Shown in pieces: positions 4,707 through 47,311 of a DNA stretch of 64,000 bases. The DNA comes from Candidatus Binatia bacterium (GTDB taxonomy: Bacteria > Desulfobacterota > Binatia > Bin18), in contig OY761159.2 in assembly GCA_963664395.2 (NCBI GenBank), forward strand, positions 2,912,001 through 2,976,000, given 5' to 3'. Each line of letters opens with the position of its first letter. Within the stretch, counting starts at the first letter, position 1. Below the pieces are notes generated by a model, which was given only the letters and a program-made list of their open reading frames with translations, did no database searches and had not been told where the DNA came from. The position numbers were made by a program, and so were the translations under genes.

Positions 4707-5636
4707 TCAGCCGCGCGGATGATACTTCCGATGCACCTCGCGTAAGCGCGCGCTCGCCACGTGGGTATAGATTTGTGTCGTGGCAATATCAACGTGGCCC
4801 AGCATTTCCTGCACAGCGCGCAGATCCGCGCCACCCTCCAGCAGATGCGTCGCAAAGGCGTGTCGGAAGGAATGGGGATAGAGTGGACTCCCCTCAGGAC
4901 TTTGCTTGGCGTACCGTTTGGTAATACACCAGAATGCTTGACGGGTCATCGGCTTCCCGGAGCGAGTCAGGAAAATATAGTCGCTGCTGCGGTGCTTCAG
5001 CAGGACCGGGCGGACGGTGTCGAGATAGCGCTGGAGCTGCGAGAGTGCACGAGTCCCGAGTGGGACCAGGCGTTCTCTATTGCCCTTGCCCCGTACCCGG
5101 ACGAAGCCCGCTTCCCGATTGACCTGAGAGACTGTCAGCTGTACCAGTTCGGAGACGCGCAGGCCGGTCGCGTACAAAACTTCGAGCATAGTCTGGTTGC
5201 GCATGCCGAGCGGGGTAGCTGCGTCTGGCACCGAGAGCAGTGCGTTCACCTGTTCCTGGGAAGGGACGTGGGGCAGTGGACGACCAAACTTGGGCAGATG
5301 GAGCAGCGCGGTTGGATTTTTCCCCGACAGTTCGTTTTCCCGTTGGAGAAAACGGTACAACCCTCGAAGCGCGGTTAAGACGCGGGATTGGGTGCGGGTT
5401 GATATTCCCTGCTTGTGCAGGACGCTGAGAAAGCCGACGACATGGCGCGAACCGGCTTGTCTGATATCCGAGATATCCTGGGTCGATAGATATTGGTAGA
5501 ATCGATGCAGGTCGTGGCTGTAGACCTCTGCCGTGCGCGGCGTTAATCCCTTTTCCACTGTGAGATGCACCAGAAAGGTATCAAGAAGGGCGTCGCTCTG
5601 CGCACTCCTCTGGTCAGCAGTGGCGGGCTGAGTCAT
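4707..5636 (-). CDS. xerD: Tyrosine recombinase XerD
   Basis: LYATGLRVSEL, GKGNRERLVP, HSFRHAFATHLL, LGHVDIATTQIYTHV, C-terminal YHPRG. Confidence 0.92.
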   Translation of the reverse strand: MTQPATADQRSAQSDALLDTFLVHLTVEKGLTPRTAEVYSHDLHRFYQYLSTQDISDIRQAGSRHVVGFLSVLHKQGISTRTQSRVLTALRGLYRFLQRENELSGKNPTALLHLPKFGRPLPHVPSQEQVNALLSVPDAATPLGMRNQTMLEVLYATGLRVSELVQLTVSQVNREAGFVRVRGKGNRERLVPLGTRALSQLQRYLDTVRPVLLKHRSSDYIFLTRSGKPMTRQAFWCITKRYAKQSPEGSPLYPHSFRHAFATHLLEGGADLRAVQEMLGHVDIATTQIYTHVASARLREVHRKYHPRG

Positions 5637-8344
5637 GCAGCCTCCTCATGGCTATGCAGACGCCCTTGCAGCACTTCCATCACATGGTCGGGATTGCCAA
5701 CTTTTGCGCCTGTCATATCAGTAACGTAGAAGACATCCAGGACCTGATCGACATTCGTTGTGATCTTCGCCAGGTGGATTACGAGACCGAGTTGGAACAG
5801 GGTGTGTGTAATATCGAATAATAACCCTATCCGGTCCAGCGCCGTGATGTCGATCAAGGTGGACGTTGGTGAAGTGGTGTTATCAATAGTAATCTCTGTC
5901 CGGAGACGAGGACGGGCGCGTTGAAGAAACGCCGGCGGCTTGGCCGCTTGCAGCAGGTCCTCAACCGTTCGCTCACCTCGCAACACTGCGCTCAGCCGCG
6001 TATAAAATCGGGCCCAGGTCTCCTCTGAAAGCATCATTTCTTGACGGTCCAGGTGCGATAGACGAAAGACATCCAGTGCAATGCCCTGTTGGCTGGTGGC
6101 AATGCGTGCGCCGGAAGTACTGAGGCCACTTGCGGCGAGTACACCGGCGAGCATGGAAAAGAGCCCCGGTCGATCACGGGTGACCAGTGTCAGCTCACTA
6201 TACTCCTGCTCTGGAAAGTGGCTCAGGCTGACGCGGTAGGGGTTGTCTTCAGGCCCGGCCTGGACAAAACGGCTCATGAGTTGAAAATGCTCTGGGACCG
6301 CATCTTCCGGAGTTGTCAGGAAATACTTATCCGGCATTGTGGTGAGGAAATGGGAGAGCTGTTCGGCTGCGGCCTGTGCGGCCAGGGTTTGTCGAATGCG
6401 TTCTTTCCGACGCTGGAGGCGCGCGCCTTGATCCTCCTCAATAAGCGCTTCCGTTTCCAAGCGCTCCAGCGTGCGTAGATAGAGTTCATTCAGCAGACTC
6501 CCTTTCCAACTATTCCAGACCTTGGGACCAACGGCCTTCATATCGGCAAACGTCAGAAGATAGAGCCTCTTCAAGCAGCCAGGATTCTCTACCGCCCGGG
6601 CGAAATCAGCGATTTGGGCGTCGTCTGAAAGATCGCGGCGCTGGGCGATGTGAGACATAAAGAGATGCTGGCGGACGAGGACTTGCCACTCGTGCGCCTC
6701 ATCTGGAGGCAGGTGCCAACGTGTGACGGCTGCATCCACCATCTCGGCACTCCGGGCGGCGTGCTCGACGCTAAACCCCTTGCCCACATCATGGAAGAGC
6801 ATCGCCAGGAATAAGAGGTCCGCGCGATCAATCTCACGCATGACCTGAGTGAGGAGGGGCAGCTTTTCCTTATACTCGCCGTCGCGTAAGCGTTCGAGTT
6901 CTGCAACGCCATGCAGGGTATGCTCGTCGATGGCATAGATATGATACAGGTCGCGCTGCGTGCGCCAGCGTAAGTGACCGAACTCGGGTAACAGCCATTC
7001 GAGTATACCTACTTCGTGCATCGCTCGCACGGTTGAGGCAACGCGCTGCTTCCAGGATAAGATGGTGAAAAAGGCATCCCGCAGAGCAGGGCGGTTCGCC
7101 GTGCCTGGAGGGAGGGCGGCCACCGCCCTGCGAATCGCCTGCTTGGTCTCACGAGTACACGCGACTCCGTGACGTTGAGCGTCATGGAAGAGGGTGACGA
7201 GATTGAGCGGCTCTTGGGTGAGTATCTCAGGCTTGGTCACGTGGAGGGTCTGTTCAACAATACGGATACCTTTGCGGATGTCCCGGCCGCGCGGGCGGCC
7301 CAAGAAATTAAAAAATCGAGCCGATGTGACGCAGCGCTCAAACATGAATCGGGTAAAATCATGAATGGTCGTGACGTGTTGGTAATACATCCGCATGAAA
7401 TGGGTCGCGTCCGGAAATCCAAAGGCTGGGGCGAGCTGATCTTGATGGGCAAAGGTCAGCTGGTCCCGTTCTGTCCGGTCAAGAAGATGGAGCCCGTTCC
7501 GGACCCGCCACAAGAAATCCTGGGCCGCTTCTACTGTGGCAAGGGCTGATTCCGAGATGACGCCTTTGACGATGAGTTCGCGCCAGTTGGTGAGCTTGAA
7601 TGCGACTTTGGCCAACCACCAAGCGGTATGCAAATCGCGCAACCCGCCACAGCCTTCTTTCAGGTTCGGTTCGAGCAGATACAGAGAATTGCCGTGACGC
7701 TGGTGGCGGACGCGGCTCTCTTTGGTTTTTGCCTGAAAAAACTGCTCGGTCCGTTTCCCCACCAGGTCCCGGTTAATGGTGGCCTGAAACTCCTGGGCCA
7801 GGGACTCTTCGCCACACAGATAGCGACTATCGAGCAGGGACGTTTTAATTTCGAAATCCCGGTTGGCCTGACGAAGACATTCCCGGATATTACGGACAGC
7901 ATGGCCGACCGTCCAGCCGGCGTCCATAAGGCTGTAATAAATAGTTTCCCACACCGTCTCGGCATACGGGGTGATTTTCCAGTGGTAGAGAAAGAGTAAA
8001 TCAATGTCAGAATGCGGACTCAACTCGCCTCGGCCATAGCCACCGAGGGCAAAAACGCTACAGCGCTGGCTGAGGCTGGTATAGCGGCGAGTGTAGAGAC
8101 GAGTTGCGGCTGTAAAGACATACCGCACGAGCTGATCCATAAGCCTGGTGTGAAGCTCGACAACGAATCGTCCGCTCTGACTCTTCGCCTGATGCTGCAT
8201 GAGCAATTCGTAGACCTGGGCGCGATAGGTTTTGGCAATCCGGCCGAGGTCCCAATCGGGCTCAATGTCCACATCCGGGTCTGAGGATGGAAGTGGGGGA
8301 AGCTCAATGAGAAGTGGTGCAGACTGCTGGTGTGCACTGTCCAT
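5633..8344 (-). CDS. glnD: [Protein-PII] uridylyltransferase
   Basis: GGYGRGELSPHSDIDL, EPNLKEGCGGLRD, HD domain (HDVGKG), two C-terminal ACT domains. Start at ATG 8344 avoids overlap with the upstream gene. Confidence 0.95.
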   Translation of the reverse strand: MDSAHQQSAPLLIELPPLPSSDPDVDIEPDWDLGRIAKTYRAQVYELLMQHQAKSQSGRFVVELHTRLMDQLVRYVFTAATRLYTRRYTSLSQRCSVFALGGYGRGELSPHSDIDLLFLYHWKITPYAETVWETIYYSLMDAGWTVGHAVRNIRECLRQANRDFEIKTSLLDSRYLCGEESLAQEFQATINRDLVGKRTEQFFQAKTKESRVRHQRHGNSLYLLEPNLKEGCGGLRDLHTAWWLAKVAFKLTNWRELIVKGVISESALATVEAAQDFLWRVRNGLHLLDRTERDQLTFAHQDQLAPAFGFPDATHFMRMYYQHVTTIHDFTRFMFERCVTSARFFNFLGRPRGRDIRKGIRIVEQTLHVTKPEILTQEPLNLVTLFHDAQRHGVACTRETKQAIRRAVAALPPGTANRPALRDAFFTILSWKQRVASTVRAMHEVGILEWLLPEFGHLRWRTQRDLYHIYAIDEHTLHGVAELERLRDGEYKEKLPLLTQVMREIDRADLLFLAMLFHDVGKGFSVEHAARSAEMVDAAVTRWHLPPDEAHEWQVLVRQHLFMSHIAQRRDLSDDAQIADFARAVENPGCLKRLYLLTFADMKAVGPKVWNSWKGSLLNELYLRTLERLETEALIEEDQGARLQRRKERIRQTLAAQAAAEQLSHFLTTMPDKYFLTTPEDAVPEHFQLMSRFVQAGPEDNPYRVSLSHFPEQEYSELTLVTRDRPGLFSMLAGVLAASGLSTSGARIATSQQGIALDVFRLSHLDRQEMMLSEETWARFYTRLSAVLRGERTVEDLLQAAKPPAFLQRARPRLRTEITIDNTTSPTSTLIDITALDRIGLLFDITHTLFQLGLVIHLAKITTNVDQVLDVFYVTDMTGAKVGNPDHVMEVLQGRLHSHEEAA

Positions 8345-8373
8345 TTTGCGCTGTCTTTCTTGACGATGCGGGC

Positions 8374-9540
8374 TTAGAGACTCTCCATGCGTGGCAACTC
8401 TTCTTTGAGGAATCGGGCAATCCCGCGAAAAAGTCCTTCCGCTATCGCTTCCCGATAGGCTGAGGAACGCAATAGCCGACCTTGGACGCGGTGCGTCAGA
8501 AATGACACTTCGGCCAATACACACGGCATATTCGCTCCAACTAACACATGGAAAGGCCCTTTTTTTACTCCCAGGTTGCGGGCCTGGGCATGACGTTTGG
8601 CGACCTGAGTCATCATAGAGGCTTGGAGGGTCCGGGCAAGGGTCATCGACTCTTCTGCTTTCCCGGTATGGATGAGATCACTCAAAATAACGGATAATTC
8701 GCTGCCTGCCTGCGCCGTCCGCTTCACGTGCTGCAGACCATTTTCAAGGTTTGCCAGCCGAATAGTGGCCCGATCATTGGTATTGTTCAGATAATAGGTC
8801 TCCACTCCTTGGAGGCGAGGATTTTCACTTGCATTGGCATGGATCGAAATAAAAAGGTCGGCCTTCATCGCATTAGCCTGGGCGGTGCGTTCCGGCAGAG
8901 GAACAAAGACATCCTTCTCCCGCGTATAGAGCACCTGCACTGGGAGGCGGGACTCCAGCTTTTTGCCGAGCCTTTTGCTGATTGCAAGGACCACGGTTTT
9001 CTCCTGGAGACCGCTGGGGGCGATTGCGCCCGGATCACGCCCGCCGTGCCCAGGGTCAAGCATAATTCGATATTGAGGAGGCGCTCGTGATTGCCCGGGG
9101 CGCGCCACGGTTTTCTTCCCCTTGCCTTTGACATCAATAATGAGCCGATACGGAGAGGGGAGCGGGAAAGCGGTATAGCTCTCAATCTGTTCCAAATCGA
9201 GTACGACCCGGGCTGTTGTTGGTGAAAACTGGCCCGTCCGGATGCGTTTGAGCAGGCCGTCATCAACGGGAATCGGCGCACGCATCCGAGGGTCAAGTCG
9301 AGCTGGAGAGAAATCGATGACAATACGGGCCGGCCGATTATGGGCCGGATCAGCCGCAACCTGAAAGTGATGATGGTCTGCTCGGTCCGAGAGGGTAATA
9401 ATAACCCGGGTGTAATCCGGGACGGACGTATGCCGTATGGCTTCGAGAGCAGGTTGGGGCGGGGGGAGAGCAAGGGCTATTTGGGCCACACTCGCCAGAA
9501 GAAATGTAATCAGTCTCCAACACAACACCCCACCACCCAT
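8374..9540 (-). CDS. N-acetylmuramoyl-L-alanine amidase with AMIN domain (AmiC-like)
   Basis: Signal peptide, AMIN (IRTGQFSPTTARVVLDL), LDPGHGGRDPGA, FISIHANAS. Exact start uncertain. Confidence 0.9.
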   Translation of the reverse strand: MGGGVLCWRLITFLLASVAQIALALPPPQPALEAIRHTSVPDYTRVIITLSDRADHHHFQVAADPAHNRPARIVIDFSPARLDPRMRAPIPVDDGLLKRIRTGQFSPTTARVVLDLEQIESYTAFPLPSPYRLIIDVKGKGKKTVARPGQSRAPPQYRIMLDPGHGGRDPGAIAPSGLQEKTVVLAISKRLGKKLESRLPVQVLYTREKDVFVPLPERTAQANAMKADLFISIHANASENPRLQGVETYYLNNTNDRATIRLANLENGLQHVKRTAQAGSELSVILSDLIHTGKAEESMTLARTLQASMMTQVAKRHAQARNLGVKKGPFHVLVGANMPCVLAEVSFLTHRVQGRLLRSSAYREAIAEGLFRGIARFLKEELPRMESL

Positions 9541-9549
9541 AGATAGAGC

Positions 9550-10851
<1,302 letters not shown>

Positions 10852-33235: not shown

Positions 33236-33377
33236 CTGATGCTTGATATACGCCCGTGTGTACTCCCTTGGCAATGGTCTACGAAGGGTTGTGATTTACG
33301 GACAGACCCTGGTGGGTTACACTTAGTGACCAAGGTCAGGCCGCTTGCAGGCCGCGGGTGAATAGGAGGAATGCACT

Positions 33378-34213: not shown

Positions 34214-37181
34214 CTAGGAGAGTCCGACGCTCACCCCTACGAACCAATACCGGCCCAGGCCGTCATACAGGCCGGGGAAGGTGTTGCCGTTGCCGGCGAA
34301 AGAGGGCCCTGCCGCGTTGCCCGCCAGCGGCGGGGCCTTGTCGAACAGGTTGTTCACGCCGACGCGCAGGCTGGTGTATTCATTGTAATTCCAGATAGCG
34401 GCCAGGTCGAAGTAGTGCCGCGCCCCGAGATCGACCTGGGTGGAGTTGAGATCTTCGACGCCGCCGATGTAGCGCCACATGAGACTGGGCCGCAGCCCCC
34501 ACGGTGTCACCCAGGTGGCGCGCAGATTGTTCCGAATATCCGGGGTCGGAAAACCGCAGGTGGCCCCCCAGTTGCCGGCGCAGTCTACCTTGCGCGCCCC
34601 TTGCAACTCCTGCTGGTCCCAGGTGGAGGTGATCGACAGGATGTCGCTGAAGCGCAGCCGCCCCCAGCGGCCCATTCCTATGACACTAAGCGGGAGGTCA
34701 TAGCCGACGGTGAGGTCGTAGCCCTGCACTTCCTCGATGGCCAGGTTGTCCAGCAGGGACACGATGCGACCGCTGTTGTCGATGTCGGAGCCCAGCCACA
34801 GGTCGCCGCTCCGCCCGCGTCTGACCTTGGCGCACTGCGAGGCGTTGCCGTCCAGACATTCGTTGAGGATGAACTCCGGCGTCAGGGTGCTGATGCCTTT
34901 GCTGATCTCGATCGAATAATAGTCCAGGCTGAGGTTGAAGCCGGGGATAAAGCCGGGCGTCCACACCAGGCCGAAGGAGTAGGTATCCGATTCCTCCGGT
35001 GCCAGGTCAGGGTTGCCGCCTTGCAGAAAATTGTACTGGGCCGCCGGGGAATTTTCGATGTTACCGAACTGGCTCGCGGTCACGCCGCTGCGGGCGCAGT
35101 CCTCAAGGCTGCGGCCCTCGGCCGTCCTGCCGTTGGCGACAGGCCCGGCACACGGGTCGGCGTTCATCTCGAACAGATTGAAGCCCTGCGGCAGGAAGCG
35201 TTCCCGCATACTCGGTCCGCGAATCGCCCGCTGGAAACTGGCCCGCAGTCTGAGGTCGGCATTAATGGCCCAGCCCGCGCGGACCCCAAAGGTATTGGTC
35301 TGCTCGCCGTAATCGTAGTCGGAATAGCGATAGCCCCCATCCAGACCGAGTTCTTCCACAAAGCGTACGCCGTCGATCAGCGGGAGGCCGGCTTCGATGA
35401 AAAACTCCGTCACGTCGGACCCGCCGCTGACGGGTTGGCTGGCGCCGCCCTGGCCGGCTCCATCGCCGCTGCGGTAGGCTTGGTCGGGTTTGAATTTGAG
35501 ATTGTCGTCGCGGTATTCGCCGCCCAAGACCACGTCCACGCCCGTAGTGGCGAATGGCGACCGGATGCCATAATCGCCGAGATGACCGGCGATATAGCCC
35601 GACACGACCGTCTGGTCGGTCGCTCCGCGGGCGGACAGGGGCAGCGTCAGGTAGTCGGTCATCTCCTGGGTCACCGCGCCCTCCCGAAAGATGTTCCAGG
35701 GGACGCAGTTCGGGTCGGAACCATCCAGCACGGAACGGCAGACAACTCGACCGGTTGCCGGGTCGTGCACCGCGTCCAGCGCCCGCCCGATGCGGGTAAT
35801 CGACAGGTCGTTCAGATAGGTGTTCCGCATGCGGACCTCGGAGTATTGGTAGTGCAGGTCGTAGCGCCAGGTATCATTAGAGGTCGCCGCGCAGACCGAA
35901 CACGCCCCGATAGGAGGTGTGGTGCAGGTCGTTTTGCCGGTTGCCGCCCTCCACATTCCGGCGGCCGATAAAGACCTGCTGGCTGTCATCTCGCGTCAAT
36001 CCATACGCGCCGCACAAGGCTTCAAACTGTTGCTGGGACAGGAATGGATTGCCGCAGCCCAGCGTATCGGTCACAAAAAACGCGCCCGAGGGGGCGATCT
36101 GGGCTACCGAGCGATTGTCCATGAACATGAACTCGGTGTAGGCCTCGACCCGGTCGTGCAGGTCGTAGTGGGCAAACAGGCCGGCGGTCCAGCGCCGGTC
36201 GGGGCGCTGGAAATAGTTCGATGGAGCGTAGTTGAACAGGGTCCCGCGGCGGGGCACGAAGCGGTCGCCCTCCACCTTATAGTCAAAGCTCTCCAGACCC
36301 CGACCTCGCAGCACGCCGAAGTCGGAAAAGGTGCCCTGCGGCTGGGTGGCCGAGCCGGAGCACTCGGTCAGGTCGTTGCTCAGGGCACACGAGCTGTAAT
36401 CGCGGTCGGCCTGGAGCACCGGGTCGATATCGCGGTAGGTGCCGTAGACCGTGACGTTACCGCGCTCCAGGTTTTTGCCCATGATCAGCGAGACATTCGA
36501 GATATCGCCGTCGGATGTTGAGCCCTTGGCGACCTCATAGCCGGCATCTTGGACAATCCGCTGCCACCTGTCGTTGCCGTTGTCGTGCTGGTATTGGCTG
36601 AACTGGTAATCCAGCTTGATGCCCTCGAAATCGTCAACCATCAGAAAGTTGACCACACCGGCGACCGCGTCGGAGCCGTAGGTGGCCGAGGAGCCGCCGG
36701 TCAGCACCTCAACGCTCTTGATCAGCGCGCCCGGAATCTGGTTGATATCGGCGCCGACTCCTCCTTGCAGCGGCGAGCCGGCCGGCAGGCGGCGGCCGTT
36801 GACCAACACCAGGGTGCGTTCCGCGCCCAGGTTGCGCAGATTCAGGGTCGCGGTGCCGGTAGCGCCGTAGGCCTGACTGGCGTTCTGGGCGGAGTACACC
36901 TGCGGCAGGGTGCGCAGCATATCCTCCACCCGGGTGGTGCCCTGGAAGGACAGGTCTTCGGCCTCAATCTGGATGACCGGGCTGGAGCTGACCAGATTTG
37001 CCCTTTGGATACGTGAGCCGGTCACGACTATCGCTTCCAACTCTGACGGCTCTTGGCGCGCTTCAGCCTCCGGCAGTGCGGCGCTCGGCTGCTCGGCATC
37101 TGCGTCCTGGGCACGGGCCGGTGCGGCAGTCAGCAGCAATGCCACCACGACCCCTTTCCATAGCAAAGTTCTTTTTGCCAT
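34214..37181 (-). pseudogene. TonB-dependent receptor interrupted by a +1 frameshift at ~35879
   Basis: ORFs 35877..37181 and 34214..35989 join (GLRGDL / NDTWRY) if one base is removed; collinear with the upstream paralogue. Confidence 0.85.
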
Positions 37182-37214: not shown

Positions 37215-40200
37215 TCAGGAGAGGCCGACACTCATGCCGACGAACCAGTAGCGGCCCAGGGCATCGTACAGGCCGGGGAAGGTGTTGCCACCTCTGCCGG
37301 CTTCACCGACGAGCGGCGGTTCCTTGTCAAACAGGTTGCGGATGCCGATACGCAGGCTGGCGTACTGGTTGACCTCCCAGATCATCGACAGGTCGAAATA
37401 GTGCCGGTCATTCACCGGGATGGGGCGATCCGGGTCGGTCTCCGTGCTGGTACTGATGTAGCGCCACATCAGGCTGGGTTGCAGCCCCCAGGGGCTCAGC
37501 CAGGTGGTCCGCATAATATTGCGGATTCTCGGGGTCGGGGTGCCGCATGAATAGCCCCAACTGCCCGCGCAGGCGATCTTCGGAATATCATCCGTTGCCT
37601 TCAGCGTATATGTATCGAGAAATGAAAGCCGGTTCGTCAAGTTGACAGAGCCGTAGCGACCAAGACTGAGCATATAGTCCACGCTGAAGTCATAGCCGCG
37701 GACGTTGGCGATGGCCAGGTTTTCCAGCACAGCCTGAACATGGCCGGTCGTCTCGATTGTGTTGGAAGACAGCCACAGGTCGCCGCCCGGCCCACGATTG
37801 ACCTTGTCGCACTGCGAGGTTTTGCCGTCCAGGCAGCGGTTCAGGACAAACTCGGGTGACAGGGCGCCGACACCACCCTTGAGTTCGATGGCGTAGTAAT
37901 CCACGCCGAAGGTGAGACCCTCAAGAAAGCCGGGCGTCCAGGTCAGGCCAAACGAATAGGTATCCGCATCTTCGGGAAGCAGGTCAGGGTTGCCGCCGAT
38001 CAGAAAGTTGTACTGACCGGCTGGTGAGTCGGGGATATTGCCGAACTGCTGGGCGGTCACCCCGCTGCGGGCGCACTCCTCAAGGGTGCGGCCGGCAGCG
38101 GTTTTACCGTCAACCACCGCGCCGGCACACGGGTCGGACGACATATAGATCAAGCCCAGCCGCTGCGGCAGGAACTGTTCCCGGATGCTCGGGGCGCGCA
38201 CCGCCCGCTGATAGCTGCCGCGCAGGCTGAGGTCGTGGTTGATGGCCCAGCCGGCCCGCACGCCGTAGGTATCGGTCTGTACGCCGTACCAGGAAGAACG
38301 ATAGCCCCCATTCAGGATCAGTTGGCGCACGAACGGAACGTCTTCGATGAGAGGAATACCGACTTCAAAGAAAACCGCTGGCACGTCGAACCCACCCTTG
38401 AGGGGCTTGGGTGCGCCGCCCACGCCGGTCCCGTCTCCGCTCTGGGTCACCCGGTCGGGCTTGTAGTTCAGATTTTCCTCGCGCCATTCACTGCCCAGCG
38501 CGATATCGAGGCCGGTGGTGGCGAACGGCGACACCAGACCGTAGCGGCCGAGATTGGCCGCGATATGGCCGGACATCACATGCTGGTTCGTGCTGCCGCG
38601 GGTCGTGCGTGTTTGTGTCAGGTAATCGGTCATGTCTTTGGTGACCGCGCCGTCCTCGAAGATGTTCCAGGCCACACAGTTCGGGTCGGCACCGCTCAGC
38701 GCCGAGCGGCAGGCGATGTCTCCGGTCGCGGGGTCGTAGACCGCATCAAGGGCGCGGTTGACCCGGCTGGCCGACATGCCGTTCACGAATTTGCTCAGCG
38801 CGCGCACCTCGGCGTATTGGTAAGACAGATTGTAGCGCCAGACATCGGCAATCTCGCCCCGCAGCCCGAACACGCCGCGATACGAGGTGTGGTGCAGATA
38901 ATCCTTGCGATTACCGCTCTCGACGCTGCGCCGGCCGATATACACATTCTGGATATCCTCTTGCGTCAAGCCGTACTGGCCACACAGGGCCTGAAACTGC
39001 TGATCGGACAGAAACGCATTGCCGCAGTGCAGATCCCTCTGCCTGAAGAACGAGCCCGAGGGAGCAATCTGGGCGGTGGTGCGGTCGTCCATGAACATCA
39101 GTTCGGTATAGGCCTCGACGTATTTGTGCAGGTCGTAATGAGCAAAGGCGCCGGCGGTCCAGCGCGTATCGGGCCGTTGAAAGTGATTCGGGGGCGCGTA
39201 GTTGTAGGGGCGACCGTCCCAGTTCGTGAACTTGTCTCCCTCGACCTGATAGAAGAACGGCGGCCCCGGATTATATCCGGGCCTGACCTTGCGGGTGCCG
39301 AAGTCGGCAAACAGGCCCTTGGGTATCGTGCCCGAGCCGATACACTCGTCAAGACCGGGTGTCAAATCGCAACTGGAGTGATCCCGGTCGCCCAGGAAAA
39401 CCTCTCCGCCGTCACGCCAAGTCGCGTAGGCGGTGATGTTGCCGCGATTGCCCAGGTTTTTGCCCAGGATGAGCGAGACGTTGGACAGCTCGCCGTCCGC
39501 GGTGGAGTCGTCGGCAACGCTATAGCCCTGGCTGGAGATCAGTTTTTTCAGGGCGCGATTGTCATTATCGTGCTGATGCTGACTGAACTGATAATCCAGC
39601 TTGATACCCTCGAAATCGTCGATCAGGATGAAGTTGATCACCCCGGCGACCGCATCCGAACCATAGGTCACCGAGGAGCCGCCGGTCAGGACATCGACGC
39701 GCTTGAGCAGCGCGCCCGGAATCTGGTTGATATCCTCGTTGCCGGTCCCCCCCCAAGGCGAGCCGGCCGGCATGCGGCGGCCGTTGATCAGCACCAGGGT
39801 GCGCGATGAGCCCAGGTGGCGCAGATTCAGGGTTGAGATCCCGCTGGCGCCGTTGGCGTTGGAGGCATCCTGACCGCCGGTAAACACCGAGGGCAGGGAG
39901 CGCACCAGCTCTTCCACCCGGACGGTCCCCTGGTGCAGCAGCTCTTCGGCATCAATGCTGACGATCGGGCCGAGCTCGACCCGGTCGGCCGCCTGCTGGA
40001 GCCGCGAACCGGTGGTCACGATCATCTCTTCCAGGGCCTCCAGTTTCTGTGGCTCTTTGTCGGCTTCGGCCTCAGGCCGTGCGCTAGCTTCGGCTTGCGG
40101 CTGTTCAGTTCCCGGCGGATCGGCGTCGGCTGCGCCGGCCGGTACGGCGGCGAAGGTGATGAGTAATGCTGTTGCTATGGCTCCGGCGAGCTTCAGCCGT

Positions 40201-40226
40201 ACCTCGGTATAGGTGATTACATTCAT
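37215..40226 (-). CDS. TonB-dependent receptor
   Basis: Signal peptide, plug motifs (RTLVLINGRR, YGSDAVAGVINF), barrel motifs (GGNPDL.PE, NLFDKEPP, LGRYWF). Confidence 0.93.
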   Translation of the reverse strand: MNVITYTEVRLKLAGAIATALLITFAAVPAGAADADPPGTEQPQAEASARPEAEADKEPQKLEALEEMIVTTGSRLQQAADRVELGPIVSIDAEELLHQGTVRVEELVRSLPSVFTGGQDASNANGASGISTLNLRHLGSSRTLVLINGRRMPAGSPWGGTGNEDINQIPGALLKRVDVLTGGSSVTYGSDAVAGVINFILIDDFEGIKLDYQFSQHQHDNDNRALKKLISSQGYSVADDSTADGELSNVSLILGKNLGNRGNITAYATWRDGGEVFLGDRDHSSCDLTPGLDECIGSGTIPKGLFADFGTRKVRPGYNPGPPFFYQVEGDKFTNWDGRPYNYAPPNHFQRPDTRWTAGAFAHYDLHKYVEAYTELMFMDDRTTAQIAPSGSFFRQRDLHCGNAFLSDQQFQALCGQYGLTQEDIQNVYIGRRSVESGNRKDYLHHTSYRGVFGLRGEIADVWRYNLSYQYAEVRALSKFVNGMSASRVNRALDAVYDPATGDIACRSALSGADPNCVAWNIFEDGAVTKDMTDYLTQTRTTRGSTNQHVMSGHIAANLGRYGLVSPFATTGLDIALGSEWREENLNYKPDRVTQSGDGTGVGGAPKPLKGGFDVPAVFFEVGIPLIEDVPFVRQLILNGGYRSSWYGVQTDTYGVRAGWAINHDLSLRGSYQRAVRAPSIREQFLPQRLGLIYMSSDPCAGAVVDGKTAAGRTLEECARSGVTAQQFGNIPDSPAGQYNFLIGGNPDLLPEDADTYSFGLTWTPGFLEGLTFGVDYYAIELKGGVGALSPEFVLNRCLDGKTSQCDKVNRGPGGDLWLSSNTIETTGHVQAVLENLAIANVRGYDFSVDYMLSLGRYGSVNLTNRLSFLDTYTLKATDDIPKIACAGSWGYSCGTPTPRIRNIMRTTWLSPWGLQPSLMWRYISTSTETDPDRPIPVNDRHYFDLSMIWEVNQYASLRIGIRNLFDKEPPLVGEAGRGGNTFPGLYDALGRYWFVGMSVGLS

Positions 40227-40262: not shown

Positions 40263-41933
40263 TCACGGAGGAGGGTTCGATGAATTGAGCGCCTCCGACT
40301 TGGCAATCTTGGTGATTGCCGCATTGGAGAATTGCGCATGAAAACCCAATAATTCCCCGTCCTTACCGCACCGCGCCTCACGGCGCAGTTCGACCCAGGT
40401 CGTGAGGGCCATCCCGATGAGGACCAGGGTGAACGGGAAGCCCGCCGCGAGCGCTGCGGTCTGCAATGCCTGTAGACCGCCACCGAGCAGGAGGGCAATG
40501 GCGACCAGCCCTTCGAGCACGCACCAGAACAGGCAGCGCCCAACCGGAGCGTTGAAATTGCCGCCGGCGGTGATGGTCGCGACGACCAGCGAGCCGGAGT
40601 CCGATGAGGTGACGAAGAAGATGACGATCAGGACGAGAGCGACGACCGAAAGCGGACCTGTCAGCGGCAGGGGTTCGAGCATTTTGAACAGCGCCAACTC
40701 CGGTGTCCAGGCGGTCACGGTATCGATCACGCCGGTGTAGCCGTCGGTGAGATATTGGTGGACGGCGGTCCCGCCAAAAGCACTCATCCACAACAAACCG
40801 AACAGCGTCGGCAGGAGGAGGACGCACAATAGGAACTCGCGGACTGTCCGGCCCCTGGAAATGCGGGCGATGAAAATACCGACGAACGGTGCCCAGGCCA
40901 GCCACCAGGCCAGGTAGAAGGTGGTCCAGTCGTGCAGGAAGGCGGTGTCCTGTCGGCCGACCCAGTTGCTGAGCGGCACAATTTCGGTCAGGTAGGTGCC
41001 CAGCCCGCTGAAGAAACCGGCCCAGATATAGAGGGTCGGTCCGATCCCGATAATGCACACCAGCAGCCCCACCGCCAGAATCGCGTTCAACTCGCTGAGA
41101 CGCTTGATGCCGACATTGATCCCGGTCAGCACCGAGCCTGTCGCCACGGCGGTGATCAGCACAATGAGCACCACCCTGGTGAGGTCGGTGGCCGGAATCC
41201 CGAACAGATAATTGAGACCGCCCGTCACCTGATTGGCACCCAGGCCGAGCGAGGTAGCAAGCCCGAACACGGTCGTAAAGACGGCCAGCGTATCAATCAG
41301 GTGGCCGGCCCAGCCCCAGATGCGGTCACCGAGCAGGGGATAGAAGGCCGAGCGAATAGTGAGCGGCAGGCCCCGGTTATAGCTGAAGAAGGCCAGGGCG
41401 AGGCCCACAAGCGCGTAGATGGCCCAACCGTGCAGACCCCAGTGAAAAGTCGCCGCGGCGATGCCGAGGGCGCGAGCCGTCTCGGGGTCGGCGGCATTAA
41501 TACCGAGCGGGGGATGCAGAAAGTGTTGGACCGGCTCCAGCACCCCGAAGAACATCAGCCCAATGCCTATGCCGGCGGCAAAGAGCATCGCCAACCAACT
41601 GACAGAGGAGTACTCCGGGACGGCCTCTCGTCCGCCGAGCCGCACCTTGCCGAGCGGGGAGACAGCCAGACACAGGCAGAACAGCAGGACAAAGTTGGCG
41701 GTGAGCAGGAACAGCCAGTCGAACTGAGTGGTGAGCCAGATCCGAATACCCCCAAAGACCAGTGTCGCTCTTTCCGGGAACAGCAGCGTGCCGAGGACAA
41801 AGACGATGATGGTGAGTGCGGAAACCGGGAAGACCGCCTTGTCGATATCCGGACCCGATATCCGGGTATTGCTCCGCCCGCTCCCGTAGCCGGGTCCGTC
41901 GTCCTGCCGCGCGTGTTGGTCCACTTGGCTCAT
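40263..41933 (-). CDS. BCCT family (betaine/carnitine/choline) transporter
   Basis: SWLAMLFAAGIGIGL, FHWGLHGW, WAPFVGIFIARISRGRTVREF, FFVTSSDS. Confidence 0.94.
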   Translation of the reverse strand: MSQVDQHARQDDGPGYGSGRSNTRISGPDIDKAVFPVSALTIIVFVLGTLLFPERATLVFGGIRIWLTTQFDWLFLLTANFVLLFCLCLAVSPLGKVRLGGREAVPEYSSVSWLAMLFAAGIGIGLMFFGVLEPVQHFLHPPLGINAADPETARALGIAAATFHWGLHGWAIYALVGLALAFFSYNRGLPLTIRSAFYPLLGDRIWGWAGHLIDTLAVFTTVFGLATSLGLGANQVTGGLNYLFGIPATDLTRVVLIVLITAVATGSVLTGINVGIKRLSELNAILAVGLLVCIIGIGPTLYIWAGFFSGLGTYLTEIVPLSNWVGRQDTAFLHDWTTFYLAWWLAWAPFVGIFIARISRGRTVREFLLCVLLLPTLFGLLWMSAFGGTAVHQYLTDGYTGVIDTVTAWTPELALFKMLEPLPLTGPLSVVALVLIVIFFVTSSDSGSLVVATITAGGNFNAPVGRCLFWCVLEGLVAIALLLGGGLQALQTAALAAGFPFTLVLIGMALTTWVELRREARCGKDGELLGFHAQFSNAAITKIAKSEALNSSNPPP

Positions 41934-42013
41934 GCCTTCCTCCCCCCGCTACGGATTTGGCGCTCAGATTGTAACTCTTCAGACGGCGCATTGATATGCG
42001 CAGGGCGGAAGAG

Positions 42014-42078
42014 GCTTGTCACGGCAGGAGGCGCAGGCCGATATACACCAGGGTGAAGACCGTCAGAAAGACGATTCC
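42014..42078 (-). repeat. Imperfect direct repeat, left copy: orphan 3' end of the NRAMP-like transporter gene
   Basis: Minus strand of 42019-42078 reads GIVFLTVFTLVYIGLRLLP*; 51/60 identical to 46001-46060. Confidence 0.9.
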
Positions 42079-42086
42079 AGTGTCAG

Positions 42087-42517
42087 GTTGTGGATTGCGG
42101 ACAGACCTTGGTGAGTTACACTCGCCTGCTCTGCGTCCGATATCTCCCCGTCGTTGTGGATTGCGGACAGACCTTGGTGAGTTACACTGTTCAGCGCCCG
42201 CACCTTACACCGGCAGTTGTTGTGGATTGCGGACAGACCTTGGTGAGTTACACTACTCGTACAGGAGATAGCGACCAGCCACGGGTTGTGGATTGCGGAC
42301 AGACCTTGGTGAGTTACACTGCCTGACCGCGCACACCGGCACGTCTGAATGTTGTGGATTGCGGACAGACCTTGGTGAGTTACACTAGGAAACCATACGA
42401 GGCTGAGCGAATCCCGTTGTGGATTGCGGACAGACCTTGGTGAGTTACACTTATCGAAGAAACGATGAACGCACGCGCTGCGTTGTGGATTGCGGACAGT
42501 CCTTGGTGAGTTACACT
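42087..42517 (+). CRISPR. Type II-C CRISPR array, 7 repeats (36 bp) and 6 spacers (29-30 bp)
   Basis: Repeat GTTGTGGATTGCGGACAGACCTTGGTGAGTTACACT starts at 42087, 42153, 42219, 42285, 42351, 42416 and 42482 (last has one A>T). Orientation inferred from tracrRNA complementarity. Confidence 0.98.
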
Positions 42518-42567
42518 GTCCCCGACGCAACCTGCTGGAATCGTGGCGATTTCGCCCTCCAGATTGA

Positions 42568-42666
42568 TTACAAAAGTTCAATCCGGAGGGGCGCGGGCTC
42601 AGGAGGCTTGCGCTTTTTCCCATAGAAAACCTGGATTCTGCCAAACTGTTTGTCGGTAATCTTGAT
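42568..42666 (-). pseudogene. cas2: cas2 3' remnant
   Basis: Translates IKITDKQFGRIQVFYGKKRKPPEPAPLRIELL*, matching the type II Cas2 C-terminus (ITDKQF...ELF-like). Confidence 0.8.
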
Positions 42667-42703
42667 AAGCTGCCTCACTGATATCAACGCTTCGCTTAAT
42701 CAT
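42665..42703 (-). pseudogene. cas1: cas1 5' remnant
   Basis: ATG overlapping the cas9 3' end; MIKRSVDISEAAY resembles type II-C Cas1 N-termini. Confidence 0.75.
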
Positions 42704-45700
42704 TTCGCAACTTCCCGATGGCATTCACAAGATGTTTTTTCATCGCGTAATCGTGCATCAACGGCGATACGGCCTTCTCCAGTTGTTCTGCACTATTCTT
42801 CCCAGCCGCTACAGTGTGGTGTTGGAGCCCAACTCTACTATTGGTGTACTCAAGTTTTTGGACTCGGTAGAACTGCCTCTCACCGTCTACTTCAACGCTG
42901 ACCAAGTCGTTGATATGTAACGCCATCACGAATTCATACGCTTCGCCGTGGTCGGTCTGAATGACCGGACGTTTCGAGCCGTTGATCCCTCTGGCGCGGT
43001 GGGCGGCTTCCATCGCGGTGACAAATCTCCCTTCATACTTTCCGGTTGCTTGGTGACGGATAATTTCGGCATGATGTGTATTGCCATACGCCATCCACCT
43101 GAACACCTTCCCCTGACGGTCACGTACCCCGAACTTGGTTTTTTTCAGGGTGTCCAAATCGAGGACTTTTAACTGCCGGACCCGGACCCTCTTGATGGGA
43201 GTCGTACCATTCTTGTGAACGACCCTCTTGTCGTCTGCGAAAGCCTGTTTTGGATCATTATCATGGTTCTCCAGATGCGCTCGGACCTGCTGCCGGACCA
43301 CGGGATCGATAATTTTGTCAACCCACGTGACCTTGAAATCCGTATTCAGGACTTGGCGATAGACTGTTCCCGGTCCGTCAACACCGTTGCCCGCGATGAA
43401 CCCGACTCCCGTTTCTTCGTGTAATGCGCCGCTGATCTTCCGTTGCGGGACGTGAGAGACAATCAGCGCTTGGAGTTGGTTGTGCACATCCTGCCTGAAG
43501 GTTTGCCACGGAATATCTATGCGTATATCTCGCAGATTGAGTTCCGAGTGGGAACGTTCGAGTTGCTTGGCCCGCCTCGCCAAACGCTGATGAAAGCCAC
43601 GGTCAATGCAGGCGATGACAGCAGCATCAATGGCGTGGTGGCGATGGTCTGTCCGTTCCTTCTCAGCGCTCGTGCCTATCAGGCTGTTCAAGCCCCATTG
43701 ACGACGGAGCCAACCGGTGAATGCCGCCTTGGGAAACGTGACATCAACTCCCAGGGCGCTCAGATAACGGCCTGCTTCCCGACTGATATAGCGAGTGTCG
43801 GTAAGCTGACTGCCGATAAAGTCTCTGTTTTGTAGCTCGGCTTCTTTCTTGTAGAAACGCTCCCGCTTGGACTTGAGGCTCTTGCCCCAACGACTGATGG
43901 TCTGGGTAATCTGATTCCACTTGTCCCCATTGCTACCGAAGGCGTCCATAGGCGTGCGATTGCGTTTGTCGCGGTTTTCCTCCGTATAGCAAACGACCTT
44001 GTTCATATAGGAGTCGTCCAGCGTCAGGCTGTAAGGCAGGATGTGGTCAATCTCAACCGCTGGCCCGAACAGTTCGGATAAAATGATCTGCCTTCCGCTG
44101 TAGGCGCACTTCTCTTCCTGGTCTTTCCACAGGCGATATTTCAGCTTGTCGCTTCGACTCGGATTTTCGGACAAGCCGAGATGTGCGTTTTTCTGGCGCA
44201 TCTCGGCGTACTTCTGAGCGGCTTCCTCATTGGCCTTGGTGTTCGCATTTTGCTGTTTGCGGAAGGCGGCATATCGCTTGGTATTCATCTCCAGATCGCG
44301 GGCCATTTCAATGCGAACCGCGTCCGGCTTGCCGTACTCGGCAATAACGGCATTCACCACCCGGCGTAGTTCGTGCAATCCTTTTTGCACTATGGGATTG
44401 GCTATTGTTGGCGGCGGGCCAAGACGGTCTTGCGCTGTGATGGATTCTGGTTCGTACCCGTAGCCCACTTCAACACGGGCATCAGAGAGAATTTTTCCCT
44501 GTTCCAGGTAGGGCAGCAGCTTGCGAACAGCTTTGGTCGAAAAATTGCCGTGACCCGGCTCGAACTCCACCATGCAGAGACGTACCGCAGTTGTGGAATC
44601 AAACTGCCAGTGACCTATAAGTCGCTTTTTCAATACGGATTTTTTCTGGATAGTCAGTAGGTCTTCCGCGAGAGCATATTGTTTGTCCCCGGAAAATGCG
44701 TCCCATTCGGGCAGTACCTTACGTATCGCGCAGGCGGTCGTGTTGCCTTTGAGCTTTTTGACTTCGGATCTTTCCAGGTTGAACTCGGTCGTCCGAGCCA
44801 GCCCAAGAGCTTTACGCAATCTGGCAAAAGTGAGCACCGGCGTGTTCTCAAACAGTGTGGCCAAGAGAGCACGGTCTTCATCGCTGAGCGTGCTCCAGGT
44901 TTCTGTATACGAATCAAAGAATTGGAGATTGTTGATGTCCTGGAGGTAACGGAACTTCTGATATTCCAAACGGGCAATTCTCGCTCGTGTGCATCGTGGC
45001 TCTAAGGAACATTTCCCTACTCGGTCATCCTGAAGCTTGAGCGGACGCTGATGGAAAATAATCTGCTCTATTTGTTCCTTTACCGTATCCGTCAACACCG
45101 TGTGGTGCTTTTTCTGTTCCTCCCAAATGGCGTCCAACTCCTCCCGGTACATTTGCCGGTCGGTCCGCAGATGTCCTCCGTCTCGCTGCCGGTTACGCTT
45201 GCTTTGAAGAGGCTCCAGCGAAGAGAGATATTCACCCAGGGTGCGACAACCGGATTTTTTGATCTTTTCTCGCAGATCACTGGTGTCTTTTTTGAACGCA
45301 GTCTCTTCTTTTTCTTCGTCCGTAATGTCGGTCTTGCCATCGGCATTGTCCTCGTCCAACTCGGCCAGAACTGCCTGCACGTCCGGGTCGTCCAACATCT
45401 CCTGACCCAGCAGCGTTTTACGGTTGCTGAGAAACCCCCGTCGTTGCACGAGGTGGAGAAGAACGCGCCCGAGTTCGTGTACACTCAGGGGGGAATCCAG
45501 CGCTTTGGCGCGGAGGGAGTACGGCTCTCCAAGCTCATTCAGAACGCTCTCCGGTTTCGGATGGTCTTTGAGACTGGTCGGCAGCAGATTCAGACTGACC
45601 AAGTAGTTCAGCATCCGTTGGCGGCGTCTGGCGCGTCGCTGCACTACGCGTCTTGCTAATCGGCTGTTACGACGCTTTTGATTCTTAGGCGTTGGTGTCT

Positions 45701-45836
45701 TATCTTCGACGGCTTTATTGAATATGCGCGAGCCGAGATCAATTAACCCGGTTGGTTTCCCAGCGTCGGTTGTTTTGAGGAGCGCCCAGCCTATGGAATT
45801 TGATCCTAAATCCAGTCCCAGAATGTGCTTGCTCAC
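42696..45836 (-). CDS. cas9: Type II-C Cas9 endonuclease (1046 aa)
   Basis: RuvC-I LGLDLGSNSIGWA, Arg-rich bridge helix, RuvC-II IEMARD, HNH EIDHILP..NKV...N, RuvC-III HHAIDA; GTG start with GGGAG RBS. Confidence 0.97.
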   Translation of the reverse strand: MSKHILGLDLGSNSIGWALLKTTDAGKPTGLIDLGSRIFNKAVEDKTPTPKNQKRRNSRLARRVVQRRARRRQRMLNYLVSLNLLPTSLKDHPKPESVLNELGEPYSLRAKALDSPLSVHELGRVLLHLVQRRGFLSNRKTLLGQEMLDDPDVQAVLAELDEDNADGKTDITDEEKEETAFKKDTSDLREKIKKSGCRTLGEYLSSLEPLQSKRNRQRDGGHLRTDRQMYREELDAIWEEQKKHHTVLTDTVKEQIEQIIFHQRPLKLQDDRVGKCSLEPRCTRARIARLEYQKFRYLQDINNLQFFDSYTETWSTLSDEDRALLATLFENTPVLTFARLRKALGLARTTEFNLERSEVKKLKGNTTACAIRKVLPEWDAFSGDKQYALAEDLLTIQKKSVLKKRLIGHWQFDSTTAVRLCMVEFEPGHGNFSTKAVRKLLPYLEQGKILSDARVEVGYGYEPESITAQDRLGPPPTIANPIVQKGLHELRRVVNAVIAEYGKPDAVRIEMARDLEMNTKRYAAFRKQQNANTKANEEAAQKYAEMRQKNAHLGLSENPSRSDKLKYRLWKDQEEKCAYSGRQIILSELFGPAVEIDHILPYSLTLDDSYMNKVVCYTEENRDKRNRTPMDAFGSNGDKWNQITQTISRWGKSLKSKRERFYKKEAELQNRDFIGSQLTDTRYISREAGRYLSALGVDVTFPKAAFTGWLRRQWGLNSLIGTSAEKERTDHRHHAIDAAVIACIDRGFHQRLARRAKQLERSHSELNLRDIRIDIPWQTFRQDVHNQLQALIVSHVPQRKISGALHEETGVGFIAGNGVDGPGTVYRQVLNTDFKVTWVDKIIDPVVRQQVRAHLENHDNDPKQAFADDKRVVHKNGTTPIKRVRVRQLKVLDLDTLKKTKFGVRDRQGKVFRWMAYGNTHHAEIIRHQATGKYEGRFVTAMEAAHRARGINGSKRPVIQTDHGEAYEFVMALHINDLVSVEVDGERQFYRVQKLEYTNSRVGLQHHTVAAGKNSAEQLEKAVSPLMHDYAMKKHLVNAIGKLRND

Positions 45837-45864
45837 GTATCGTCTCCCGTGTATATTCCTCGGC

Positions 45865-45970
45865 AGTGTAACTCACCAAGGCCTGTCGTCAGCTCTTCAT
45901 ACCAAAGAAGTTGTTTCTTCGCAGGCAACGCTTTCAAGCGACCAGAGCCCTCCCAGTGGGGGCTTTTTTT
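45865..45970 (+). ncRNA. tracrRNA
   Basis: AGTGTAACTCACCAAGGCCTGTC is 22/23 identical to the reverse complement of the repeat 3' part; followed by hairpins and a GC stem with T7; TATATT -10-like element at 45852. Confidence 0.9.
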
Positions 45971-45995
45971 ATTCTCTATGGTTGTCGGCGGTGAC

Positions 45996-46060
45996 GCTTG
46001 TTACGGCACCAGCCGTATGCCGATATACACCAGGGTAAAGACCGTCAAAAAGACGATACC
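45996..46060 (-). repeat. Imperfect direct repeat, right copy (functional 3' end of the transporter gene)
   Basis: Encodes GIVFLTVFTLVYIGIRLVP*; partner of 42014-42078. Confidence 0.9.
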
Positions 46061-47311
46061 GGCCCAACTCAGCAGCCGCAGCCAGGGCGGAGGGTGGGCG
46101 GCGGCTGGCACATGGGGGCTGAGGACGAGCCGATGGTTGGCCAGGGCAATAATCGGCGCGACCAGAAATGAGATAACGGTGGCCAGGTCGATGAGCGTGG
46201 TAAAGCTGGTGAGAAACAGCGCAATAATCAGATAGCCGCCAACCGCGCCAATGACGAGCCAGACGTTATACACTGTGCGGCTGTCCTGTCCGTCCTGGCT
46301 CCGAGAAAACAATAATGCCCAGGTGCGGTCCATGGCCCTGGCATAGCCGTCAAAGATGACCAGGGCGGTGCCAAACATGACGGAAAAGGCCGAAGAGGCG
46401 ATGATGATATAGCTCCAGTCCCCGAGCGTTGCGGTGTAGAGCCGAATCACCTCATGCGTGAACTGTGTCCCGCTCTGGTTTGAGAATGACTGCCCGGAAC
46501 CGTACATGATGAACGCCCCCAGCGTCATGAAGCAGACGGCCAGAAACGCCGTCATCACATACGCGACATTAAAGTCGAGCAGCGTCTCGCGCAGGGTCGG
46601 CCGGTAGCCGGTCTGCTTGAAGCGTTCAAGCGTCCAGAGGCTGTTGAGGGCGGATAAATCCAAGGGAGCCGGCATCCAGCCCATGAGGGCAATCAGAAAG
46701 GCAAAGCCCGAGGCGGTCCAGACCTCGGACGAGTAGAAGGCCACCGGCGCGGTCGGACCGCGCAAGAGGGTCAGAACAAAAGCGGTCAGGGTGGAGAGAA
46801 ACAGTACTGTACAAATGACCTTGATGAGGCGGTCCAGGGTGCTGTATTTTCCGACCAGCAAAATGCTGACGCAGCCGACGATCAGGAACAGGGCGGTGTG
46901 GATAACCGGCAGGTCGAGGCCGAGCAGGTTGTTCAGCAGTCCGGCGGTGGTAAAACAGATGGCCGCGATAATAATGGACATCGGGCTGACCGTAATAAAC
47001 AAATAGAGATATAAGGCCCAGTTCCCGAAACGCTTATAGCCATCGATCAGGCTTTCGCCGGTCGCGTTCGCATAGCGCGAGCCGTACTCAAAGGACGGAT
47101 ATTTCAGGAGATTGGCAAGAATAACCGCCCACAGCAGCGCATAGCCATAGTCGGCCCCGGCGCGGGTTGACTGCACTAAATGTGAGACGCCAATGGCGGT
47201 GCTGGCAAAGAGCAGGCCCGGCCCCAGGGTTTTGAGCAGGCGGGAGCGCTGGCTGTCTTCTTCTTTCGGGGCGGTTGTCTCCATAGGAGCAGTCGCTTGT
47301 GTGTTTTCCAT
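46001..47311 (-). CDS. NRAMP-like/APC superfamily membrane transporter
   Basis: LGPGLLFASTAIGVSHLVQSTRAGA, ALMGWMPAP, about 11 TM segments. Start moved to ATG 47311. Confidence 0.82.
   Translation of the reverse strand: MENTQATAPMETTAPKEEDSQRSRLLKTLGPGLLFASTAIGVSHLVQSTRAGADYGYALLWAVILANLLKYPSFEYGSRYANATGESLIDGYKRFGNWALYLYLFITVSPMSIIIAAICFTTAGLLNNLLGLDLPVIHTALFLIVGCVSILLVGKYSTLDRLIKVICTVLFLSTLTAFVLTLLRGPTAPVAFYSSEVWTASGFAFLIALMGWMPAPLDLSALNSLWTLERFKQTGYRPTLRETLLDFNVAYVMTAFLAVCFMTLGAFIMYGSGQSFSNQSGTQFTHEVIRLYTATLGDWSYIIIASSAFSVMFGTALVIFDGYARAMDRTWALLFSRSQDGQDSRTVYNVWLVIGAVGGYLIIALFLTSFTTLIDLATVISFLVAPIIALANHRLVLSPHVPAAAHPPPWLRLLSWAGIVFLTVFTLVYIGIRLVP

Follow-up and report, generated by a model that had tools for sequence, protein, structure and literature searches.

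A type II-C CRISPR-Cas locus of a Candidatus Binatia bacterium has, in all likelihood, lost cas1 and cas2 by one microhomology deletion, leaving cas9, the tracrRNA and six crRNAs that should still be makeable. The locus lies in a stretch of 64,000 nucleotides analysed here as a whole (the window; genome G000), and positions refer to it unless another record is named. A sequence-only reading had proposed that a single deletion removed the adaptation module while cas9, the tracrRNA and near-identical repeats stayed intact. Alignment to an intact locus from the same genus agrees: a gap of 1,095 bp explains the whole difference, and the retained parts, the leader among them, are whole. With its adaptation genes reduced to their ends, the window locus is a degenerate derivative of type II-C and not a complete member.

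The effector gene occupies 42696..45836 on the minus strand and encodes 1,046 amino acids from a GTG start, with no internal stops. Its product matches the NCBIfam Cas9 model TIGR01865 at 667 bits and contains the Pfam domains HNH_4, RuvC_III and Cas9_a. Among solved structures, its best matches are Cas9 chains of 1,082-1,095 amino acids, with which the GLDLG, DH...N and HHAIDA motifs align; we take these chains to be type II-C enzymes such as NmeCas9. Family model, domains and motifs together identify a Cas9 effector that has both nuclease domains, RuvC and HNH.

The protein is 78-82% identical to the Cas9 of three other genomes of the genus, G011, G022 and G027. There the start codon is ATG, a form also present at 45836 in the sequencing run X15. 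Among the four genomes the pairwise dN/dS is 0.17-0.22, and three-taxon arithmetic from these pairwise values puts the window's own cas9 branch at about 0.23. Along the gene, identity across G000, L022, L004 and L021 is a mosaic, mostly 75-95%, which suggests recombination between alleles within the locus. The last ~150 nt (42696-42850), presumed to be the PAM-reading part, form the most diverged block: 60-78% identical at the DNA level, and 60-64% between G000, G011 and the G022/G027 pair. In G022 and G027, Cas9 also has a C-terminal extension of nine codons because the stop codon has changed.

Divergent from cas9, on the plus strand, lies a candidate tracrRNA gene (45864..45975) that begins with an anti-repeat (45864-45887), continues through hairpins and ends in an intrinsic terminator, with a stem at 45944-45966 and then a T run; the fold was computed as well. 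The anti-repeat, of 23-26 nt, is 96% complementary to every repeat of the array, and the terminator is on the same strand, as judged from the letters of the DNA. This region is nearly invariant in the four same-genus genomes, with three point differences inside the RNA in the window copy. A T>C change in the window anti-repeat produces an A.C mismatch with the repeats.

On the other side of cas9, a presumed leader of 50 nt (42518..42567, minus strand) runs from the cas2 stop to the first repeat and is conserved in the four genomes. The 3' end of cas2, the leader and the first repeat are 89-100% identical in pairwise comparison, as measured over the last two 150-column alignment blocks. The adjoining CRISPR array (42087..42517, plus strand) comprises seven repeats of 36 nt (GTTGTGG...TTACACT) and six spacers of 29-30 nt. 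Six of the seven repeats share one sequence, from which the seventh, at the cas9 end, departs by a single base. Because the anti-repeat and terminator set the tracrRNA strand as plus, the crRNAs would be read on the plus strand as well, in the direction that leads from the cas9-distal end of the array to the gene. A sigma-70 consensus scan of the locus, repeats included, returned no promoters, and promoters embedded in the repeats were not confirmed.

The scar itself is a stretch of 136 nt (42703-42568, minus strand) that holds what is left of both adaptation genes. The cas9 reading frame ends in ...KLRND*, with its TAA stop at 42698-42696; an ATG at 42703-42701 overlaps this stop and opens the cas1 remnant (42664..42703, minus strand), a start codon plus 12 codons reading MIKRSVDISEAAY. 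It continues out of frame as QDYRQTVWQNPGFLWEKAQAS*, 34 codons in total, to a stop at 42599. The cas2 remnant (42568..42663, minus strand) consists of the last 31-32 codons and the stop, out of frame with respect to the cas1 start; it reads (I)KITDKQFGRIQVFYGKKRKPPEPAPLRIELL* and terminates with TAA at 42570-42568. At the joint stands TTATC (42664..42668, minus strand), a single copy in the window where G011 has one in cas1 and one in cas2.

Both peptides had been likened, from sequence alone, to the N-terminus of Cas1 and the C-terminus of Cas2, and BLASTP bears the likeness out. The cas1 remnant is identical at 11 of 13 positions to residues 1-13 of G011 Cas1 (E 5e-5), the cas2 remnant at 30 of 31 to residues 79-109 of G011 Cas2 (E 8e-21). 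These relatives are firmly placed: G011 Cas1 (298 aa) scores 272 bits against the NCBIfam type II Cas1 model TIGR03639 (cut-off 120), and G011 Cas2 (109 aa) 77.9 bits against TIGR01573 (cut-off 24.5). Pfam assigned no family to either remnant; as the peptides are too short for profiles, this blank is no evidence against homology. The family assignment of the remnants thus rests on identity to the full-length G011 proteins and on colinear DNA, and recognizing them depended on a close intact relative, Pfam alone being insufficient.

The DNA alignment gives the extent of the loss. Window positions 46600..42664 correspond to 5236..9146 of record L004, and 42668..42087 to 10237..10819. L004 is the closest public record, that of G022, with a Cas9 81% identical to that of the window. 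Positions 9147-10241 of L004, 1,095 bp, are without counterpart in the window, and the same 1,095-bp gap appears against G011. The out-of-frame join had been placed around TATC at ~42664-42667, which is exactly where the alignment puts it. Both edges carry TATC when L004 is the reference and TTATC when it is G011, a junction microhomology of 4-5 nt; by our own arithmetic, a random joint would share at least four letters with a chance of ~1.5%. We propose an ancestral II-C locus in the order tracrRNA, cas9, cas1, cas2, leader and array, in which a microhomology-mediated deletion of 1,095 bp would have joined the TTATC in cas1 codon 13-14 to the TTATC ~32 codons before the end of cas2.

With 13 codons of cas1 and 31 of cas2 left, and these gene ends fused out of frame, neither Cas1 nor Cas2 of the II-C system can be made, and the array is therefore without spacer uptake by its own machinery. 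We consider the II-C locus very probably adaptation-dead. There is neither a csn2, as in type II-A, nor a cas4, as in type II-B, in the gene layout; this was judged from the gene order of the intact relatives G011 and L008 (cas9-cas1-cas2, then the array) and from the lack of room in the window.

Logan assemblies of public sequencing runs cross the joint. A contig of 5,673 nt from run X12 spans 42416-46300 with no differences; X12 may be the source sample, and the contig comes from a separate assembly. A 224-nt contig of X15, a run of another study, spans 42481-42704 with three differences and leaves 183 and 37 letters on the two sides of the joint. The deletion allele is hence present in runs of two studies. 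Two further contigs stop there: that of X16 spans 42482-42666 and ends inside the joint, and that of X1 ends at 42660, 4 nt beyond it. Such stops may reflect other forms, relatives with a whole cas2, in those communities. The part of the array without contig cover (42102-42403) reflects repeat collapse in short-word assemblies and is uninformative. Public runs labelled as sponge or marine metagenome hold small shares of the stretch's words (0.05-0.19), and no RNA run containing it is on record among the public runs searched.

The genome (5.04 Mb in 14 contigs, 96% complete, 5.4% contamination, a metagenome-style assembly) was also searched for other cas1 and cas2 genes. G011 type II Cas1 found no match in it even at E 10, and the sole match of G011 Cas2 was the scar. 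These searches thus found no second type II copy, and the remaining adaptation genes belong to type I. The Pfam Cas1 model marked two other places, both outside the window. One is a complete-looking type I-F system (G000:C1:3496229-3505719, L023) with Cas1f, Cas2-3f, Csy1-4 and 28-nt repeats; the other is a type I-E system (G000:C1:3373135-3384257, L024) with Cas3, Cse1, Cse2, Cas7, Cas1e, 29-nt repeats and a Cas2e-like ORF of 80 aa. The Pfam Cas2 model PF09827 had no match in the whole genome, and it misses both the I-E Cas2-like ORF and the I-F Cas2-3 fusion. The I-F and I-E repeats are unrelated to the 36-nt II-C repeat, and the Cas1 and Cas2 of such systems are not known to serve II-C arrays.

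Targets were sought with the whole array as query. In the genome itself only chance hits of 16-20 nt were obtained, and neither 50,697 phage records nor 72,556 plasmid records contained a protospacer. Partial hits overlapping spacers in G002 (26 nt, E 0.003) and G049 (28 nt, E 0.0075), and one in G060 covering the end of a spacer with the repeat that follows (E 0.004), were dismissed as chance level; they came from 60 related genomes, and chance was judged for 61.

Within the genus, Cas9 of this lineage occurs in 3 of 27 other genomes (G011, G022 and G027), 80-82% identical to that of the window over the full length, and two further genomes have distant Cas9s only, at 33-34% identity. In all four genomes with the lineage, the window's included, cas9 is open. 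Of the adaptation genes, those of G011 are intact. Aligned to them, G022 has a 1-nt deletion in cas1 that yields ORFs of 177 and 152 aa, and G027 has a ~622-nt deletion in cas1 as well as a 1-nt deletion in cas2, the 1-nt lesions of both being possible assembly errors; the window has its 1,095-bp deletion. Because the lesions differ, they arose separately. All four lesions of the three damaged loci fall within the ~1.2 kb of cas1-cas2 and none within the 3.1 kb of cas9. By our own arithmetic, the chance of this placement by length is ~0.006 for four hits or 0.02 for three lineages, figures to be read with the kinship of the genomes and the possible assembly errors in mind. The placement hints that cas9 is protected; yet two lineages have lost it.

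Those two keep orphan arrays. G001 has one of six repeats (L052 6834-7196) and G007 one of three nearly perfect repeats (L053 8089-8255), and neither genome gave a tblastn hit to Cas9, Cas1 or Cas2. Four of the six G001 repeats are identical to the window consensus and the other two differ by one mismatch. Since G001 keeps them without cas genes, near-perfect repeats are no sign of maintenance or use. More widely, some match to the array query exists in 16 of the 27 other genomes, mostly as single repeats. The window array, with 6 spacers, is the shortest of the four that accompany cas9 (the others have 11, 13 and 24). The four arrays share no spacers with one another, and some spacers are duplicated within G022 and G011; it follows that every lineage filled or renewed its array after the split. 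On these comparisons, the locus appears to have decayed repeatedly across the genus, with the window caught at one stage of the process.

A degenerate lone II-C repeat, with mismatches at 5 of 36 positions, lies 8.8 kb from the array at 33288-33323, flanked by a CoA-transferase-like gene and a CBS-domain gene. It is the only II-C-type repeat elsewhere in the genome. The relic repeat occupies the corresponding position in L004 (12034-12069) and G007 (L053 7135), and in G022 only two small genes separate the array from it. The TonB-receptor and BCCT genes that lie between the relic repeat and the array of the window may therefore have been inserted or rearranged.

The locus forms an island of about 4 kb, with a G+C content of 52-54% against 59-64% in the flanks. 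On the tracrRNA side, the 3' end of a membrane-transporter gene (...GIVFLTVFTLVYIGIRLVP*, stop near 46001) contains the first copy of a 68-nt sequence (45993..46060, minus strand). A second copy, non-coding and 85% identical, marks the far edge of the island (42011..42078, minus strand) and adjoins a BCCT-type transporter gene (41933-40263, minus strand). From the tracrRNA side to the array end, the island measures 3,982 bp between these two direct copies, and no recombinase gene is found within it. An empty site, with one 68-nt copy and the transporter gene adjoining the BCCT gene, is present in many same-genus genomes, for example G006 and G012. Run X15 likewise has two empty-form contigs, joining 42008 to 45996 and 42012 to 45987. 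No second 68-nt copy was found at the array end of the G022, G027 and G011 loci, and the direct repeat is thus particular to the window arrangement. The G011 locus lies ~6.6 kb further on, adjoining a TonB-type receptor gene, and other genes follow that of G022. As a speculation, the island could have come by between-species transfer, through homologous recombination at one edge and illegitimate recombination at the other.

Several features of the surroundings may be recorded here. In G007, a sequence like the transporter 3' end lies directly beside the mini-array. The last ~200 nt of the BCCT gene (40263-40454) are unaligned in most same-genus genomes, where alignments start at 40454-40564, and several of these genomes have a weak extra 68-nt copy ~1.6-1.7 kb from the transporter gene, past the BCCT gene. 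At 34214-37181 the window has two adjacent minus-strand ORFs of 591 and 434 aa that overlap by ~110 nt (35877-35989). By translation, the 434-aa ORF looks like the N-terminal portion of a neighbouring 1,003-aa ORF (37215-40226), which we read as a probable TonB-dependent receptor.

If the absence of cas1 and cas2 were an assembly artefact, the genes would be present in the organism and collapsed out of the contig. The metagenome-style assembly with its 5.4% contamination, and the X16 and X1 contigs that break at the joint, speak for such an error; against it, independent contigs from X12 and X15 bridge the joint with 0 and 3 differences, the 5 nt in common make too short a repeat for collapse, and the 14 contigs hold no other type II cas1 or cas2. 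Assembly collapse, which the sequence-only reading had named as a way of being wrong, is in our view extremely improbable. A deleted adaptation module could also be compensated, and the spacers still renewed, by the I-E or I-F Cas1-Cas2 acting in trans or by swaps of array segments through recombination with relatives. The genome does encode Cas1e with a Cas2e-like ORF and Cas1f with Cas2-3f, and the mosaic identity of cas9 suggests recombination in the locus. VI-B systems are described as borrowing Cas1-2 from II-C (PMC8092290), and exchange of spacers by transformation has been proposed for Cas9-only Campylobacter coli (PMC4607530). The repeats, however, differ in length and sequence (36 nt versus 28-29 nt in I-F and I-E), our literature search turned up no type I integrase that fills a type II-C array, and none of the other three arrays is as short as that of the window. 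Type II acquisition moreover requires Cas9, Cas1 and Cas2 to make contact, a point also cited in PMC4607530. We hold continued renewal to be very unlikely.

What the surviving parts are for is a separate matter. The whole locus might be a dying relic in which the cas1-cas2 deletion was the first hit and cas9, though unused, has so far escaped being struck. The decay across the genus is in keeping with this, from the lone degenerate repeat at 33288-33323 and the mostly single repeats in 16 of 27 genomes to the G001 and G007 arrays that outlived cas9 and, without any cas genes, still have nearly perfect repeats; so are the GTG start of the window cas9 and its anti-repeat mismatch. Set against it are the concentration of all four lesions in cas1-cas2, the Cas9 dN/dS values both between genomes and on the window branch, and the occurrence of the deletion allele in runs of two studies. 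We regard the relic as a serious possibility, if not the one we favour. Alternatively, Cas9 may be kept for a non-defence job, such as regulation of own genes as in Francisella, for which cas1-cas2 would be dispensable. Three lineages without adaptation do keep Cas9, and non-immune roles of Cas9, with mention of Francisella, are in print (PMC5965381). But the six spacers match the own genome only at chance level, and the presumed PAM-reading end is the most diverged part of Cas9, which fits an arms race with invaders better; we think such a role improbable. The larger share of our belief goes to a remaining locus that would be able to interfere: as every part is whole, Cas9, the tracrRNA and six crRNAs would still be made, with crRNA transcription probably beginning within the repeats and running in the direction of cas9 by analogy with Neisseria meningitidis, and DNA matching the six fixed spacers would still be cut. 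Against a working locus count the lack of a public RNA run that contains the stretch, the empty protospacer searches, the GTG start, the A.C mismatch of the anti-repeat and the complete loss of cas9 in two genomes of the genus. It is in this sense that we infer the label "interference-only".

Comparison with the II-C system of N. meningitidis brings out what was kept and what was lost. The intact relatives of the window share its three-gene plan of cas9-cas1-cas2 and array, and G011 Cas1 matches the type II model named 'cas1_NMENI'. The window Cas9, at ~1,050 aa, is in the size class of its solved relatives, the repeats are 36 nt long and start with GTTGT, and the crRNA strand is predicted to be opposite to that of cas9. 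In contrast to N. meningitidis, cas1 and cas2 are deleted in the window, the tracrRNA lies upstream of cas9 and divergent from it, and the repeats have no sigma-70-like promoter (0 sites), which leaves self-promoting repeats putative; promoters inside the repeats are described for N. meningitidis in PMC5965381.

Two published cases are closer in kind. According to Pearson et al. 2015 (PMC4607530), Campylobacter coli clade 3 has a natural II-C locus of cas9 and array with no cas1 or cas2, to which the same reasoning on frozen spacers was applied. It is another organism with another Cas9 lineage, and the window differs from it in retaining a readable scar of the loss and in having sister genomes with independent lesions. 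In the host-associated 'Ca. Endomicrobium trichonymphae', II-C loci of close genomes are at different stages of pseudogenisation, according to PMC5174739; there cas9 is split and the array lost, whereas cas9 is spared in the window.

With Cas9-only II-C loci already in print, the window locus is a real but ordinary further example, a textbook erosion of CRISPR-Cas that involves no new mechanism. Its value is in its clarity: the joint, the microhomology and an intact sister locus can all be read, making it a clean, datable case, and one genus displays the locus at four or five stages of loss. The genus thereby serves as a modest natural experiment on two questions: do adaptation genes disappear ahead of effector genes, and does selection maintain a Cas9 whose guides are fixed? 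Three of the four genomes with this Cas9 lineage broke cas1/cas2 by different lesions and yet have cas9, tracrRNA and arrays whole. A further reading, which we think rather unlikely, is that loss of spacer acquisition is favoured in this genus, that a frozen Cas9 with fixed guides is a stable selected state, and that the ~4-kb island may move between species. If that were true, a frozen Cas9 could avoid the costs of self-targeting and yet block a few recurrent invaders.
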